Below the pieces are notes generated by a model. The model was given only the letters and a program-made list of their open reading frames with translations. It was not told the origin of the DNA and did no database searches. Shown here one piece after another: positions 491 through 45,648 of a stretch of 64,000 bases of DNA (position 1 is its first letter; every line of letters begins with the position of its first letter). The DNA lies in NCBI GenBank assembly GCA_951406725.2, contig OX597821.1, positions 64,046,001 to 64,110,000 of the forward strand, in the 5' to 3' direction. This DNA is from Octopus vulgaris. Its lineage: Eukaryota. Both the position numbers and the translations under genes were made by a program.

Positions 491-1820
491 TACGCACACA
501 TACACACACATAGTCATGCATGTGTTTGTCCCTGTGCATACCCTGTACATTATCCGTTACTTTCTGTGTATTAATCGTATTAACTCCTAACTTGATAATC
601 TAACGAACAACTGGAAAATAACTTAGTAGCCGGGAGGAGGACTTGTTTGTTTGTATGTATTAGCTCAAGATTCTTCCGTTCTCGTTGCATTACTTTCATA
701 CCCAAATATATTCCCTTGAGTAGGAGGCTTACGTTCAAAACTTGTTATAAGGGAGTTTATATGGAATTCCATGTTGCATCTGGTTAGTGAAACTGAACTT
801 AATAAAGTCCCCAAATGGAGAGCAGTATTCAGAAGCTTGCAGCAAAGCATGGTATTCGCATATTGTTCGTTTTGAAATGAGTTATCTTCTGGTCTGAAGA
901 ACAATTACGGACATAAAACTCGAAATAATGAAATGTCACAATACAAATATATATGTATGTACGTTTGCATGTACGTATGTATGTTGGCCGGCCGGTAGGT
1001 AGGTAGGTACGTAGGGAGGGAGGGAGGAGTAACTATGTGTATGTAAGGCGTGGAACAGCTGAAAGTTTAAAATAGTATAGCTATCTATCTATCTATCTTT
1101 CTAACTATACGTATGAAAAAGTGTGTATGTGTGTGATAGCAAGAGGCTTTTCGTGTGTACGTATGTAGGAAATTATAGCAATCCTGGTGATATTTTGTTG
1201 ATAAGTGATGATAGGTTGAGCATGTTCACGCCCATTATCCATCGGTTTGTTTTTCTTTTTTTCCATATAGGATTTTATCGTCTCCTGTGCCACATTATAC
1301 ATATATAAATGTATGTATACATATTTATGTACGTTTGCATGCTTGTATGTATATATTTACGACATGTGTATGTATACGTATGGTAAATGTGTTTCAAAGT
1401 TGTGGTTTCTTTAATATGTTTGTTCTCAAACAATACTTATTTTAGTGCTGTTGACACCGACGGATTGAATGGTACTGCTCAGGTGTTGAAACCATAATGA
1501 TATCTGCGAGGCAGCTGATGAAGGAGGTATGTTGGATTATTGGTATGGCTGTCTATGTATATGTAGAATAATATTATAACACATCCATATATATATATAT
1601 ATAAATATATTGGGGGTGTTTGTCTCCCCTTCGTAAATGTATATAAGGATACAGGAAAAATGTGTCGAAGCCATCAGGAAGCGTCGATGCTTCGTAGGGC
1701 TAAACAGCTGTGGTGTAATCCCCTACTATCACGTTCACGCTAGATTGACAGTATACAACAATTCTATCGCCCCACCACCGTACATATCTCTATGAGAGAT
1801 TTAGAACTTTAATATTTCTG

Positions 1821-1861
<41 letters not shown>

Positions 1862-1867
<6 letters not shown>

Positions 1868-2058
1868 AAGTTAATCCAAACATCAAAACACAACAACGCG
1901 AGGTCGTGAAACAAATATAGTATTATTGGACGCTCATGAAGGAAGGGAAGAAGGAGGGTTTTACGTTTCGAGCGGAGCTCTTCGTCAGAAACATAGGAAA
2001 AGGAAAGATCCAGAGAAAGGAAGACGGAGGAAAAAAATCGCCAACGGTACTCACGCGG

Positions 2059-2062
<4 letters not shown>
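1862..2062 (-). mobile_element. ~200-bp hammerhead-containing repeat, family H1 (probably derived from a Penelope-like element, PLE), copy 1
   Basis: Near-identical inverted copy at ~37736-37941; both copies are flanked by microsatellites and contain an HHR motif. Confidence 0.7.
1958..1992 (-). ncRNA. Predicted minimal type-I hammerhead ribozyme (H1)
   Basis: Minus strand: GUUU-CUGACGA-A-GAGC(UCC)GCUC-GAAAC-GUA^-AAAC. Stems I and II pair; stem III is the loopless palindrome ACGU. Confidence 0.75.
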
Positions 2063-2144
<82 letters not shown>

Positions 2145-2574
2145 ATACTTTGACACTATGCATACTGTGTGTATGAGGTACAGTTTTCTTGTAGTCAGCC
2201 TTCGTACCAAATATATGAAGTTATATTTGTTTTAGACGTCTTACTTGTTCTTAAATGTATAATAGCATTATCTGTTCTAGTTGGCAGCCAGCCTGTTGGT
2301 GAAGTGTTAATTCTCACAGTTTATGAACGTTGGGAAAAGTGCTGGTGATAATGGTCATGATACACACTAGAAGTGTTAACTTTAATATTATAATTAATTG
2401 AAAACAAATAGCAACAATTGGCTTCGTTTCTTACATATTAATCAAAAGCAAAAATGAGTTTGAGTAATCACGGCGAAAGAATTGGGAACATTTTAAGGGT
2501 ACATGGAATTAAAGCTGGTAGAAAGCAATGTAAATGAAATGACGTGCTTTTATGCAGAGATAAAAATTAATTCG

Positions 2575-3905
2575 AAGGCATAGCAAGATGATATTGAAGG
2601 TATACGGGCATTTCTTCTTCTTTTTTTGGGGGGTGGAATGGGGATGAGCGCATAGCTGGGAGCTGTAGTCCAAGCGATTGAGAACGAAAGTCTTCCATAT
2701 GGGGTAGCAGGGCTTCCCTTTTCCTAGTTCTGAATGGCCTCAGAATCCATCCAACAAGTCGCCTGCACAGTGTTGCCATCTTGGTAATATGCACATAGAA
2801 TGTTGCATCATTGCTCATGTGAACCCCCAGGTCACGCGCCGACTCTGACTCTCAGATCACATTACCTTCTGGTCCAGTGTATTTCGATTTTAGCTTGGTG
2901 TTGGACCAATAGCGGAGTGCCTGAAACTTCATAGCATTGAACCCTCATGTTATTTTTGTTGGCCCATTTGTAGATTTCATTCAGGTCTTTCTGCAGTTTT
3001 ATGATGTCCTCTTGGTTCCTAACTGCCTGCGATAGTTTTGTGTCGTCAGCATAACTGGTCAGATTGGCTGATTGTACCGCGTAAGTTATGTCTGAGAGAG
3101 CCACCAAATTGTAGTGGCCCCAGTACAGTTCTCTGTGGGAATCCGCTGAGAATTGGTGTCTCTTCAGAGTGAGCACCATTGGCTACAAGTGCCTGACTCC
3201 TGCCTTTCAGAAAATCATGCATCCACTCTCCCAGTTTCCCGGTAATACCAAGGTTTCGGAGCTTGTGACATATCATGCCATGATCAACCTTGTCGAAAGC
3301 CTTGGTAAAGTCGAGGTATATCACGTCTACAGGGGACTGGTTTAGCTGTTACTTCAGTACCCAGTCAAAGTGCTTCAAAAACTGCATGTTTGTGAGAAGG
3401 TTGTTTTCTTCTAGGAACATGATCAGCCTTTTTTCTGAAAATGCGTTCCATTGTCTTGCTAACATGTGAGGTCAGAGAGATGAGCCTGTAGTTGCTAACA
3501 TGTGAGGTCAGAGAGATGGGCCTGTAGAGATGCTCCCTCTTTTATGGACTTCTAGCAAGTTGGGACGTTTACCACATGCAAGGAAACTCCGAAAGAGTGT
3601 CTGCTGTGGCTTTGCAAGAGACTTTTATGTCTTTCAGAGAACGGCCAGGAGTCTATCTGGACCTGTTGCTGAGTTTGATCTCATCTCCTCAATGGCCAAT
3701 ATTACATCATCTTCTGTTATGTTGATGTAATCGATAGTTGCCTCTTTTCCGAATAGATCCATTACACAGAAAAACTCCTTCGGCTTATTTATTTGCGTAT
3801 TTTCCAGTGGAGAAGTGAAAACACTTCGGAATTATTTATTTGGTGCTTCATTTATCTTCCCTGGGTCTTCAGCTATTGAGCCGTTTCTACCAAATAGTGG
3901 CCTTA
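2575..3905 (-). mobile_element. Degenerate CR1-group LINE ORF2 (RT) fragment, family A-related
   Basis: Frameshifted RT motifs IYLDFTKAFDKVDHG, PQRTVLGPL, SYADDTK, GWILRPFRTR. Collinear with the 22.3-24.9 kb copy; carries an internal 36-bp tandem duplication at ~3456-3527. Confidence 0.9.
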
Positions 3906-27155: not shown

Positions 27156-28210
27156 CTTCAGTATGTCTCAATTCCCAGATTTATTAAATAACATACAAAT
27201 GATCTTGTCTAATTCCTTCATTACCAAAGCCGTTAAGAATGTACTGAAGACGGTTCACTCTGATGACAGGCATAATTTGAACACGTCATATTCTTTACGG
27301 AGTGATCATACTCCACTTACGATGACTCTAGTTACTTGTCTTGCCTGTCAAATTATCTGACATGGAATCAGATATTGAATTAAAATTTAATGAATCTATG
27401 GCTCTTGAATCTCGTACTGAAAACATTCTTTACCATACATATTAATATTGCAGTTATTTGTCAGTGCTATTGCAATCAACAGACTGTAAGAGAAGTGTGC
27501 GAGTGAATGATGGTAATGATTAGTGAACGTGCGAAGCAATTAGACACCAAATGAAAAATTTAGTCGGTACTAATATGATTAATTATTGGAAAGAGTGATG
27601 TCTTGAGAGACAGCTCATTTTATCAGGATTGATTATCACTGTTACAAAAATGTGGTTTGAGAAATTAAGGTTGAGCAATTAACTTCGTTTGAGGACAAAT
27701 AGTGAAAGATGTCTGCAGTCAGAATAAATTAACCAAATGCACTCGCAGCCGGAAATAACAAACTGAAGAAATTAGAGAAATATCGATAGCGTTTGAATAA
27801 CAAATTAGGTAATTGCCATGACGGGTCACATGATTAAATGATTATATTTGAATACGAAATCTTTATTGATAAACGTAATCCGTTGCCCGGTTTAACGCCC
27901 ACGGCTGGTTTCGGGTTGCTTTAACAAAATCCTCTACGTTGCAAGCAATCAGAAAAGCTATGAGTATCAGAAGATTCCCTTTTTTCAACTAGTTGCAAAG
28001 GGTCATGTGCCGTACCTCCTCTCCGTTTGCTTATGACATGTAGAATTAGATCATTTGTACAGAGAGAGAGAACAAGTCAAGCAAGGTTCGTAGTTCAGGT
28101 TTATTGCAAGGACAAAGTAGCTTATGAAATAGATGGCATTAGTTTCAGTCAAGGTGGCGAGCGGAGAGAATGTTAGCATGCCGGACAAAATTCTTAACGA
28201 TATTTCTTCC

Positions 28211-28482
28211 ATTATTTCCATTATTTACATTCGACGGATATTTGTCCTCATCTTTTTTGTTGCTAACACAACGTTTCGGCTAATATACCCTCCAGCCTTC
28301 TTCAGGTGTCTTGGGGGAAATTTCGAACCTGGGTTCTCATTCCTACGGTATTTTTCGATGTCATTATCATTATTATTATTGTTGTTGTTGTTGTTGTTGT
28401 TGTTCAGGTCACTACTTGGAATCAAACTCGGAATCTTGGGGTTAGTAGCCCTCACTCTTAGCCACTGCGCCATATGCCCGTG
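28211..28482 (-). mobile_element. tRNA-headed, hammerhead-containing mobile unit, family H4 copy 1, inserted in an S1 SINE
   Basis: Minus strand: A box tggcgcagtggctaag, B box gagtttgattcc, (AAC/AAT)n, then HHR. TSD ga(t/c)atttcttcc at 28199-28210 and 28483-28494; the S1 sequence resumes after it. Confidence 0.8.
28265..28310 (-). ncRNA. Predicted minimal type-I hammerhead ribozyme (H4)
   Basis: GACAC-CUGAAGA-A-GGCUG(10 nt)UAGCC-GAAAC-GUU^-GUGUU; palindromic stem III AACGUU. Confidence 0.7.
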
Positions 28483-29914
28483 GACATTTCTTCCGTCTTT
28501 ACATTTTGAGTTCAAATACTTCCGGAATCGACTTCTCCTTTCGAACTTTCCGGTTGCTAAAATATTTACCAGTTGAACACTGAGGTCGAGGTAATCGACA
28601 TGTCCCCTCCCGTGAAATTGCTGCCCTTGTACCAAAATTTGAAATATCTATATTTCAATCAAGCCGATGAACCGGCAGAATTGTTAGAAGCCGGATAAAA
28701 TGCATAGCTGCATTACTTCCGTTTTCAGATTCTGAGCTCAAATTCCGCCAAAGTGGACTTTGCCTTTCGACCTTTCTGGTTGATGCAACTAGTACCGGTT
28801 GAACACTAGAATCGATGTAATCAACTTATATCGCCGGATAAAATGCTTAGCATCAGTTTTTCCGGGTTTAAGCTCTGTGTTCAAATTCATCTGAGATAGA
28901 CTTTACCGTTCATGATTTTCGTGGCTGATGAAATATGTACTAATTAAACACTAATATGTACTAATTAAATGTAATCGAGTGTCATCCCCATCCCACAAAA
29001 TTTCAGGCTTATTGTCTATAGTAGAAAGGGTTAATAGATATATATCAGTTTACCTAAACTTTCAAAAAATACCATAGGATTCGCCGCTTTCTGCAATATG
29101 CATTTAATTAATCTTTACCTGAAGTTGAAAGCATTCTTATGTTTCAACTACGACAATAAATTTGCTAACACAAACCTTTTTCTTATTTGCTATTAGTGTA
29201 TTGGAAATATGTTCTATTTTCTGGAAAGTGAAGTGCAAGTAGACTTAAATAACTTGCGTTGAGGACAAGTCTATCGTATATCAAAAAAGTTCGTGCAGTG
29301 CGAATTTTATGGGTAGAAGAGGATTAAGATAATTTTCCCCGAAAGGGTGAAATTTATATAAACAATTATTTTACAGTCTCACTTTTAAGAAGTTCTGCAC
29401 TGAAGAGCTTAACTGAATTAGATAACTGAATTCTGGTTGTCAGTTCAACCGTTCTAGTTATCTAGGGGGCAACAGTTCAACTATCAAGATCAGTCAATTT
29501 AAACAGATAATGTGTCTTGGTGCAACAGCTCCGCAAGATTTTAATTGAAAGCAAACTGAATATGTTGTATGTGACGTATAAATCTTTTTTTTTCTTTTAT
29601 GGCTTTCTTTTGCAACGTGAAGTAGTTAATTGAACAAACATTATCGAATGCTAAAGATCAAAGTCGCATTATTTTGATCAATACTTCTTTTATTTTATAG
29701 AGATTAAATAATTACAATTGCAAAATATATATCAGGAGTAATCTCCCTAAGTTCAATCTTAAAGATTAAGCCAAGGCAATGTAGTGAAAAACATTTTGTT
29801 CGAAAGATAACTTGTCGTGAAGAGATGACAAGAATAAAATTCCTTAACTAATTCATCAAAGTATTCTAAAGAAAAAGTTTAGATAAATGACTAAAGATTA
29901 TGATAGAGAATAAT

Positions 29915-43266: not shown

Positions 43267-45072
43267 TAATAATGGTAGAGCTAATGATGGCGGTGGTAGT
43301 GGTAGTGGTGAGGGTGAGAATAAGAAAGGTGATGACTAGGCATCACGAATATTTTTTTTAAGAATGATAGAAAATAAATTAAAGAGTTCTTGAATCATTA
43401 ATGAGAACGACAGAGAAAACAATAATTGGAAAGGAGACACGTTCTACAGAAATATGAAACACCACAAAATATCTAAAATAAAAGATATTTCAGACAAGAG
43501 ATCGTAGTTAAACGACCAATAATTTGTCATGAAAAGCGGCATTATTCCTATTGATAAAACAAACAATTTGTCTCCTAACGAAAAGGATTTTAATAAGAAT
43601 ATCCTGTAAAAAAAAATGTGAAATCAATGCAGCTCCAATAATTAAACAAATAAAAGATTTACTGGAAAGAATGTCGATAGCAGATGTCTCATCATGAACG
43701 ATAATGCTGGACATAATAAGCGAAACACGAGAAGTTTATTGAGAAAAAATAACAAACCCAGTAGTTACTGACGTACTACAAAACACGAGCAACAGACAGC
43801 ACCAAAAAAATGGTAAATCATTAGGAAGATATTTAACTCGCACCTACGAAGTACCTTCAAAGACATTCAATTATATACTTGCTGAAAGAGCAAGAATGAA
43901 GACCCAAATTGCTCACCAAAGTAAAAGACTTGCTAATCGAAAGACTGAAGTCTCGAAACTATAGTCCAATACTACTGTTGTTTAAAATACCATATTTTCT
44001 GTCATAGAAGTCGAATTTTTCAGACAAAAATTTACAGCCAAAACATGTAGGTCGACTTATACAACAAAACTGCTTTGATGGGTCAAATATTCTTTTCTAC
44101 TCTAGGCACAAGGCCCGAAATTTGGAGGAGGAGACCAGTCGACTAGATCTACCCCAGTACGCAACTGGTACTTACTTTATCGACAACCACAAATGATGAA
44201 AGGCAAAGTCGGCCTCGGCGGAATGCGTATCTGTCATAGGAATAGTTACCTATTGAGGTAAACGTCTATTGCTGGCCAAGAAAGTCATAACTGAAGATTA
44301 TAAGCAGAAAAAACTATGATCTGAGAAGGGTTATGATTTATTTCAGGAAGCTCTTTTTTACGGTAATACACGTATTTTTTGAAAATGTTAACTATGTGTA
44401 AAGTAGCATTTAGATTGCTATATAAATGATAAATAATTGCTCCATAAATACTATGAGCAAACGGAAGGCGGTTTTACAGATCTATTAATGAAGGGAGACT
44501 GCAAAGGGAAAATCGATTCTTGTTATAAGTGGAAAACAATTTCATTTTGCGCCAAGAGCTTAAACCAGAATTTTAAACCAGCTCACTTGGATAATGATTA
44601 AGTTTAACAACCATAAAATCATCTCCTGTATGTGCATGACCGCAAGCTACATATTAGGTGTAACACTGTTGGACACCTTCTATGTGTAGTCTATGGTTTC
44701 AGTAGACAGAAGTCACAGAGTTCAAAAATATAGATGACTCCTACTTTACAAAGTTACGGCATTAATTCCTGCTGAACTACCTACCTACTTCCACCAGTGT
44801 AACCTTTCCATGAGCAATATGACGTCTTCAGCTCCCTCTAGCAATCGGATCTTTGTAGAGTTTCTATTAAAGGTGGGTGCAGTGAAGTACACGAAAGGGG
44901 GATATCTTATACTACCAATATCTATCAACTTACTGTATACTCTATCTAATAACAACACTATGAAACAGTTATGGTTTTCACATATCCGAATTAAATGATT
45001 TTGGAAATCAACTCTGAAGAAACGAAAAGAAATATTATGTTCGGAAAAGTAGTAAGAGAGTAAATCTTTTGT

Positions 45073-45417
45073 TCATTATTTACATTATTTACAATTGACA
45101 GACATTTGTCCTCATCTTGTTTGTTATTAACACAACGTTTCGGCTGATATACCCTACAAGCTTCATCAGGTATCTTGGGGAAAATTCATACCTGGGTTCT
45201 CATTCCTAAGGTATTTTTCGATGTTCTTGTTGTTCTTCTTCTTATTATTATTATTATTCAAGTCACTGCCTGGATTCGAACTTGGAATCTTGGGGTTAGT
45301 AGCCCGCGCTCTTAACCACTACGCCATATGCCCATGGGCATACAACAAGCAAGATGAGGACAAATATCCGTCAAATGTAGATAATGTGTATGATTCCTCA
45401 TCTCTTAAATATAGATC
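45073..45417 (-). mobile_element. Family H4 copy 2 (tRNA head plus HHR) with an inverted partial copy at its 5' end
   Basis: Homologous to 28211-28482; A box tggcgtagtggttaag, B box agttcgaatcc. ~45342-45388 is an inverted copy of ~45080-45125; TSD aaatcttttgt at 45062-45072 and 45422-45432. Confidence 0.8.
45129..45174 (-). ncRNA. Predicted minimal type-I hammerhead ribozyme (H4), stem II weakened
   Basis: GAUAC-CUGAUGA-AGCU...AGCC-GAAAC-GUU^-GUGUU. Confidence 0.6.
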
Positions 45418-45648
45418 AGTGAAATCTTTTGTCGTTTATGTTTCAGTATTGGAGGCAGCCAGGTTGGAGCACCGCCTTGTAAAGATGCAATCAAACGAAT
45501 CGACCCAGTACTTATATTTTATGCCTGGTACATATTCTATCGATTTTTTTGCTGAAACGCTAAGTTGCGGAGAACATAAACAAACCAACTCTAGTTGTCA
45601 AGTGATGGGATGGAATAAAACACACACACATACATACACACACAAATA

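Follow-up and report, generated by a model that had tools for sequence, protein, structure and literature searches.

A tRNA-headed, hammerhead-bearing short repeat of Octopus vulgaris as the solo terminal repeat of a Penelope-like element

The window analysed here, a stretch of 64,000 nucleotides of the Octopus vulgaris genome (contig OX597821.1, positions 64,046,001 to 64,110,000), contains two copies of a short unit in which a tRNA-like head precedes a hammerhead ribozyme. This raises the question of where such a unit comes from and which enzyme moves it. The first-pass annotation had described it as a composite, non-autonomous SINE-like element mobilised by a Penelope-like reverse transcriptase (RT). 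We find that the two window copies are decayed solo pLTRs of an RT-encoding Penelope-like element (PLE).

Two copies of the unit in the window

Both copies lie on the minus strand and align with each other at 82% over 278 columns, each being the only match of the other within the window, simple repeats and microsatellites aside. Head, A and B boxes, (AAC/AAT)n spacer, the core CTGA[A/T]GA, GAAAC-GTT and tail were located in both copies where the first-pass annotation had placed them.

Copy 1 begins with its tRNA-derived head (28405-28485), which comprises a short leader (28485-28480), tRNA position 1 at 28479, the A box at 28472-28462 and, with one CpG-type change, the B box at 28429-28418. 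The (AAC/AAT)n spacer (28362-28404) is followed by a segment (28311-28361) containing an ATG at 28340, whose frame in long copies crosses the ribozyme into the RT open reading frame (ORF). The minimal type I hammerhead (28265-28310) consists of stem I (28310-28306 with 28269-28265), the core (28305-28299), one unpaired A, stem II and GAAAC-GTT, with the cut predicted after 28270. The 3' part of the pLTR (28211-28264) carries N-terminal codons of the PLE ORF and ends at the proximal RT start, without the tail extension of 30-40 nt. In copy 2 the head extends over 45259-45340 (from leader position -7, with tRNA position 1 at 45333), the A box over 45326-45316 and the B box over 45283-45272, followed by an (AAT/AAG/AAC)n spacer (45225-45258), the hammerhead (45129-45174) and the pLTR 3' part (45073-45128), again without tail extension. 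While this forward unit stands as proposed, the first ~80 nt formerly assigned to the copy (45421-45342) fall outside it: they form an inverted arm on the plus strand (45342-45421), a pLTR 3' part with tail extension placed head-to-head to the forward arm.

Each copy has a distinct target site duplication (TSD), as had been claimed. That of copy 1 is 9 nt exact (28486-28494 upstream; 28202-28210 downstream, within the host SINE); extension to 28483 lengthens it to 12 nt at the cost of one mismatch. That of copy 2 is 11 nt exact (45422-45432 and 45062-45072). Copy 1 does split a SINE: both flanks match the same repeat family elsewhere in the window, and in the host-SINE copy at 14856-14755 and 14749-14692 the matches to the two flanks are nearly adjacent. 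The mobility of the unit is borne out. More than ten members of the host SINE family occur in the window, at 28120-28830 and in many further positions, several of them closely paired.

The best tRNA match of the head is tRNA-Arg(TCT), at 52 of 73 positions, with the shuffle maximum well below this value in a comparison covering 30 tRNA loci of few isotypes. The A and B boxes are consensus-like and in tRNA register, although the cloverleaf is lost; the head has no acceptor stem. ARAGORN reported no tRNA in either copy, and Rfam, run on the two copies, returned no hammerhead or tRNA, only weak unrelated matches. The tRNA and hammerhead labels therefore rest on motif, alignment and folding. Among the 150 Rfam matches listed for the whole window, we found microsatellite-driven miRNA hits, which were rejected.

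The hammerhead claim holds for the core letters in both copies and for the stem II pairing in copy 1, but not for stem II in copy 2, which is broken. Stems I and II are formed in the minimum free energy (MFE) structure of copy 1 and the stem III loop is absent, likewise in a further genomic copy (L011), and the MFE fold of copy 2 is not a hammerhead. N7 is the only core position to vary in a comparison of 54 short with 36 long copies. The PLE minimal hammerhead, as described in the available text of PMC4209133, combines a short stem I with a long stem II that is preceded by one unpaired base, and has a palindrome replacing stem III; the ribozyme of the octopus unit, with the architecture seen in copy 1, is of this type. 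Motif and modelled fold indicate that a minimal hammerhead is present in the pLTR. MFE folding of dimers gave intermolecular stems, not a dimer with swapped stem III, and is uninformative on dimer cleavage.

Similar ATG-led stretches occur on either side of the ribozyme, at 28340-28324 and 28251-28235 (minus strand), and the first of them holds a second B-box-like word. The two stretches are possibly the product of an old duplication.

A Penelope-like partner with the unit at both ends

We searched the genome assembly (2.8 Gb in 227 contigs). At one locus (L018), a fragment with Penelope RT motifs is located between an inverted and a forward arm of the unit. A search with this fragment led to 19 further RT loci, 14 of which have a head downstream on the same strand, 12 of those at a distance of 647-677 nt. 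The order in the alignment is RT, endonuclease-like region, stop codon, ~45 nt, head, spacer, ribozyme and tail. On the other side, the upstream walk shows that the ribozyme module ends at one fixed position and joins the ORF start directly in 18 of 30 loci. Since it is present on both sides of the ORF, the unit is a pLTR, containing the head, (AAT)n, an ATG, the hammerhead and the ORF N-terminus; the frame opened by the ATG ahead of the ribozyme reads through the ribozyme into the RT. None of the 19 RT loci joins the ORF to the ribozyme without the head. The search for an autonomous PLE whose pLTR holds the hammerhead and tail, which had been suggested beforehand, thus yielded an RT-encoding element with a pLTR at both ends, its endonuclease recognised by motif only. 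As the pLTR of this element itself comprises head, spacer, ribozyme and tail, the proposal of a composite SINE with a borrowed PLE tail had to be abandoned.

The RT motifs are found in genomic copies, where a 251-aa fragment matches RVT_1 with an E value of 1.3e-4, below the Pfam cut-off; its relatives P0006 and P0002 (54-66% identical) carry RVT_1 above the cut-off, and relatives overall are 52-66% identical. In two loci (L038, L048) the endonuclease region displays by eye a motif pattern that we take to be GIY-YIG, with no Pfam match. All ORFs among the copies translated are broken, and copies diverge by ~4-6% at non-CpG sites. The junction between ORF and head is bridged by at least 31 nt in contigs of two other organisms, so that the arrangement is common to relatives. 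By layout, the element is an EN+ PLE; we presume it to be of the Penelope/Poseidon type, from the domain order and the absence of the CxxC linker found in a second family of this genome.

This second, C-rich PLE family (L039:74-1100; L261-L290) has 1,229 candidate places, a T-rich 5' region and a CxxC linker before the endonuclease, by which we assume it to be Neptune-like. No hammerhead of the pattern used occurs in the stretches examined.

Integration was analysed in three samples: 74 head segments (the top 72 entries listed for one contig, together with partner arms), 90 tail-selected segments (90 of the first 100 listed) and an ORF-start sample (70 of 71 ORF-start places). They come mostly from the start of one contig, favour copies whose 24-mers are intact and include a few duplicated loci. 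Five locus pairs share flanks as well as the element (L363/L364, L147/L150, L059/L060, L061/L062 and L075/L076) and are local or segmental duplications, not separate insertions. The ribozyme module lies downstream in 63 of the 74 head segments, showing that head and ribozyme travel together instead of occurring mostly independently. The remaining 11, which lack the module, were examined for a head joined to a different body; all run on into (AAT)n, several with later insertions.

An inverted piece is found at the 5' junction in 48 of the 74 head segments. The 3' ends of the 90 tail-selected segments fall into two groups, 42 at a distal site and 47 at a proximal group ~30-40 nt earlier, with one between; beyond the distal site only one of 115 rows extends into the ORF. 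The 3' end is therefore a fixed site inside the ORF N-terminus, and no LINE-type poly(A) or simple-repeat end is seen. TSDs of 7-21 nt were scored in 22 of 52 loci, a count that has no null and in which some loci are counted from both arms or are of low complexity. Among the listed places the copies are dispersed, single or head-to-head, with only partial tandems near ORF starts. A comparable one-sided tail has been traced to two internal RT starts in Anolis Poseidon, according to the available text of PMC11167929. The shared sequence, the inverted 5' arms and the one-sided tail support the earlier suggestion that a Penelope-like RT is the mobiliser.

In many ORF-start copies (L381-L450) the ORF breaks off after 40-130 nt and the sequence switches to a different piece of pLTR, frequently at the point where the head begins. 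These jumps represent template switching between short RNAs.

Short copies and a probable start site at the head

Exact 24-mers of the tail, ribozyme and head occur 10,148, 7,090 and 4,994 times genome-wide, those just upstream of the head 655 times, those of the endonuclease region 477 times and those of the ORF start 71 times. All reversed 24-mer controls gave 0, indicating that the unit is not a chance pattern. The count falls by 87% over ~60 nt at the head edge as against 27% over the next 220 nt, and short headed copies exceed long ones by ~8 to 1, the ratios being rough given that the patterns are unequal in degeneracy.

The individual 5' ends are concentrated at the same place. Among the 74 head segments, 47 begin at -7 to +8 of tRNA position 1, 13 at +11 to +30 and 7 (mostly short fold-back arms) at -19 to -11, and only 7 continue into the element body. 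In the tail-selected sample 31 of 90 segments reach +8, of which 25 end by -19. Nine ORF-start segments reach the head: six start at -4 to +5 (two of them arms of one insertion), one starts at +29, and two run on past the head as tandems; 6-7 segments in each of the other samples also run upstream past it. The 5' edge thus lies at about -7 to +1, 13-14 nt before the A box, which is the usual spacing in tRNA-derived SINEs. The 5' ends spread over ~15 nt, and many are at fold-back junctions on a small leader hairpin.

We compared 54 short with 36 long copies and found no non-CpG substitution that separates them; the three non-CpG positions that vary, including N7 of the ribozyme core, do so in both groups. 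Since 5' ends stop at the head and variants are common to short and long copies, the short copies likely come from a promoter within the pLTR. The 5' cliff marks a start site but does not discriminate between polymerases.

A separate non-autonomous SINE lineage, with a tRNA head and a PLE tail, that parasitises the PLE and forms chimeras appearing as long headed copies, would account for the numerical excess of short copies and for the frequent template jumps between short pieces. It is, however, at odds with the fixed ORF-head junction in 14 of 19 RT loci and the lack of a headless ORF-ribozyme join, with the presence of the head also ahead of the ORF start, and with short copies that carry no diagnostic changes; we regard it as largely refuted and the least probable of the readings considered. 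Whereas a tRNA-derived SINE would be a lineage of its own with nothing but the 3' tail in common with its partner, here the partner carries the whole unit. Judged from sequence, the short copies are SINE-like in behaviour but are solo pLTRs, not a separate lineage.

Alternatively, the short copies might need no promoter, being 5'-truncated products of a long RNA on which copying stopped or folded back at the leader hairpin, or which was cut there in an RNase P-like manner. PLEs are heavily 5'-truncated (PMC8557442, in the text available), and many of the 5' ends are indeed fold-back junctions at the palindromic leader. Yet the cliff persists in the 26 copies without an inverted arm, 5 of which extend into the body, the hairpin has just 5 bp, and the head offers no acceptor stem to RNase P, which makes this explanation very improbable.

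Of the 90 tail-selected segments, 5 (4 independent) have their 5' end within +/-3 of the ribozyme cut site. Gaps at the cut site occur in 15-16 of 90 copies, compared with 3-4 nearby, and are more frequent in long than in short copies (11 of 36 vs 5 of 54; P 0.013, uncorrected), the sole such difference between the two. Most common among them is the in-frame loss of 3 nt within a short GT repeat, for which slippage or a master variant is possible. The cut-site ends and gaps are a weak hint of occasional ribozyme cutting. A 47-nt GT-AG intron in the tail, by which a second ATG downstream of the cut site would enter the RT reading frame, is not supported: no spliced junction was found in the loci examined, nor in RNA-seq among the 15 joints listed of 43.

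Terminators, proposed mechanism and known systems

We asked whether the element carries Pol III terminators, counted as runs of four or more T (T4) on the sense strand. At no position of the ORF do more than 10% of copies share such a run, and the majority sequence of the pLTR is free of them. Single copies contain 29 runs in 75.8 kb (0.38 per kb), where mononucleotide composition predicts 147, and in-frame segments contain 9 against 31.8 by synonymous shuffling, these being 48 related, non-independent segments. Treated as one evolutionary draw, the deficit has a synonymous-shuffle P of 0.056 across the 502 codons on the 5' side and of 0.43 across the 253 on the 3' side, the two codon sets partly overlapping. 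As controls, the second PLE family of this genome, which is richer in T, has 18 conserved T4 sites in 3.3 kb, and 15 distant PLE ORFs (metagenomic, drawn from 80 loci, with a frame of at least 250 aa and duplicates dropped) have 92 runs in 16.1 kb (~5.7 per kb) against 80 expected, one of the 15 being without any. An A/B-box pair after the ORF was seen in 0 of the 15 distant loci. An A-rich Dong-like LINE, used as Pol II control, provided one segment of at least 300 aa from 25 loci, with 1 T4 observed and 1.4 expected, which makes this control uninformative. The lack of conserved T4 in the octopus sequence hints that the whole element may be transcribed by Pol III.

RNA-seq depth is ~1,000-3,500 on the pLTR and below ~30 on the ORF, equal on both strands and without a start or end peak, in three apparently unstranded runs of one study chosen by species label only. 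Because ~69% of the reads placed on the element run on into unlike flanks, this signal is read-through of embedded copies and is silent on Pol III.

The main rival to a Pol III start is Pol II initiation at the same site: the element would be an ordinary PLE whose pLTR contains a Pol II promoter, and a captured tRNA piece would happen to sit at the start site; every pLTR would then be a promoter and the RT would start internally. Known PLEs have a start site and an internal promoter in the pLTR (PMC8557442, in its available part). The cliff would be expected from any start site, and a capped RNA is simpler to translate. What speaks against this reading is that the A and B boxes have stayed consensus-like without a cloverleaf, that the edge keeps the distance to the A box familiar from tRNA-derived SINEs, and that no T4 is conserved across ORF and pLTR. 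On balance we think a Pol II start unlikely.

The reading that we favour, and consider probable, is that the short copies are solo pLTRs of a PLE with a tRNA-derived A/B-box cassette, arising from a Pol III start there and copied by the RT/endonuclease of the element. Pol III would start at about -7/-6, 13-14 nt before the A box, on any intact-headed copy, 3' pLTRs and solo copies included. The RT start would lie inside the short RNA, so that no defined 3' end or poly(A) is needed, and each headed copy could be a SINE-like template. The PLE protein would nick the target, copy from one of the two internal starts and often add an inverted second arm, and the ribozyme would be mostly uncut in the copied RNA, as for Anolis Poseidon in vitro. 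In this way promoter-made short RNAs have likely been copied into the genome more than 10,000 times by the element's own enzyme. In the least certain step, the promoter of the 5' pLTR would also make a full-length, terminator-free, uncapped RNA.

The wider proposal built on this step is that a protein-coding element of ~2.8 kb is transcribed end to end by Pol III, with the terminators purged from its ORF and its uncapped RNA translated, and that the same promoter sheds a SINE-like family many times more numerous than the element. This would be a tentative reading, which we hold to be possible but somewhat doubtful.

The element resembles Penelope/Poseidon PLEs such as Anolis PAc, as far as these are described in the available text of PMC11167929, PMC4209133 and PMC8557442: pLTR-ORF-pLTR layout, RT placed before endonuclease (putative in the octopus element), an ORF overlapping the minimal hammerhead (as in Anolis Poseidon; PMC11167929), a long stem II preceded by an unpaired base, two groups of RT starts, a one-sided tail of 30-40 nt, inverted 5' arms and heavy 5' truncation. 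What sets it apart is the opening of its pLTR, formed by a tRNA-derived A/B-box cassette followed by an (AAT)n spacer, together with the pile-up of solo pLTRs at that cassette and a sense strand lacking T4. With tRNA-derived SINEs (SINE2) the short copies share a tRNA head with A and B boxes, a length of ~300 nt, a high copy number, variable TSDs and an RT acting in trans; unlike SINE2, they have no LINE tail or poly(A), their partner is a PLE, and the whole unit, head included, belongs to that partner and is undiverged from it.

A tRNA-derived Pol III promoter followed by a hammerhead is also known from Schistosoma Sm-alpha and Sj-alpha. In the available text of PMC6765202 and PMC2770079, Sm-alpha is often in tandem, cleavage releases single copies without the promoter, and no partner is named, whereas the octopus copies are dispersed, retain both the promoter and a ribozyme that is uncut, and belong to an identified PLE as its pLTR. 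The TRIMp3 elements Cassandra, Helenus and Ajax likewise have a Pol III promoter derived from a small RNA in the terminal repeat of a retroelement; these are non-autonomous LTR elements, and their autonomous partners are argued to need Pol II and to be unlikely to share the repeat (PMC10886601, available text). In the octopus, by contrast, the protein-coding element carries the cassette, and where TRIMp3 is non-coding with true LTRs, a PBS and PPT and TSDs of 4-5 bp, we find a pLTR with a hammerhead, longer TSDs and a coding partner. Non-LTR retrozymes and MRC1 resemble the octopus copies in being non-coding, pLTR-related sequences mobilised by PLEs (bioRxiv 10.64898/2026.07.22.740005 and PMC8557442, in the parts available); retrozymes, however, are tandem arrays, an arrangement that the octopus copies do not have. 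By word search, 'tRNA', 'Pol III' and 'polymerase III' are absent from the available text of the retrozyme preprint (bioRxiv 10.64898/2026.07.22.740005), and hammerhead, ribozyme and Pol III from the available main text of the octopus repeat annotation (PMC13282606). We found no description of a tRNA-headed pLTR or of a PLE-mobilised SINE in the main texts of the openly searchable literature.

Our results identify an RT partner for a tRNA-headed, hammerhead-bearing short element. They suggest that a SINE-like family can arise without recombination of separate parents, when a retrotransposon gains a tRNA promoter in its terminal repeat, internal RT initiation then making every such terminal repeat a template. 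If the ORF were also read by Pol III, this would contradict the expectation that autonomous retroelements need Pol II (PMC10886601, available text) and would offer a natural test both of the translation of uncapped Pol III RNA and of the purpose of the PLE ribozyme. Annotation is affected as well: segments that one would class as SINEs, numbering tens of thousands, are PLE pLTRs.

Other elements were met beside the pLTR copies. In four loci (L007, L019, L027 and L030, just upstream of 1501) a repeat ending in (CT)n-CACTC(AAT)n replaces the head directly before the ribozyme module; this is likely a second element that targets microsatellites, having inserted into the spacer. The 3' parts of a Dong/R4-like LINE lie inside the (AAT)n spacer of pLTR copies at L006:1-1480, L061 and L149; near-identical copies (99-100%) elsewhere indicate that this LINE is young and that the spacer serves as its landing pad.
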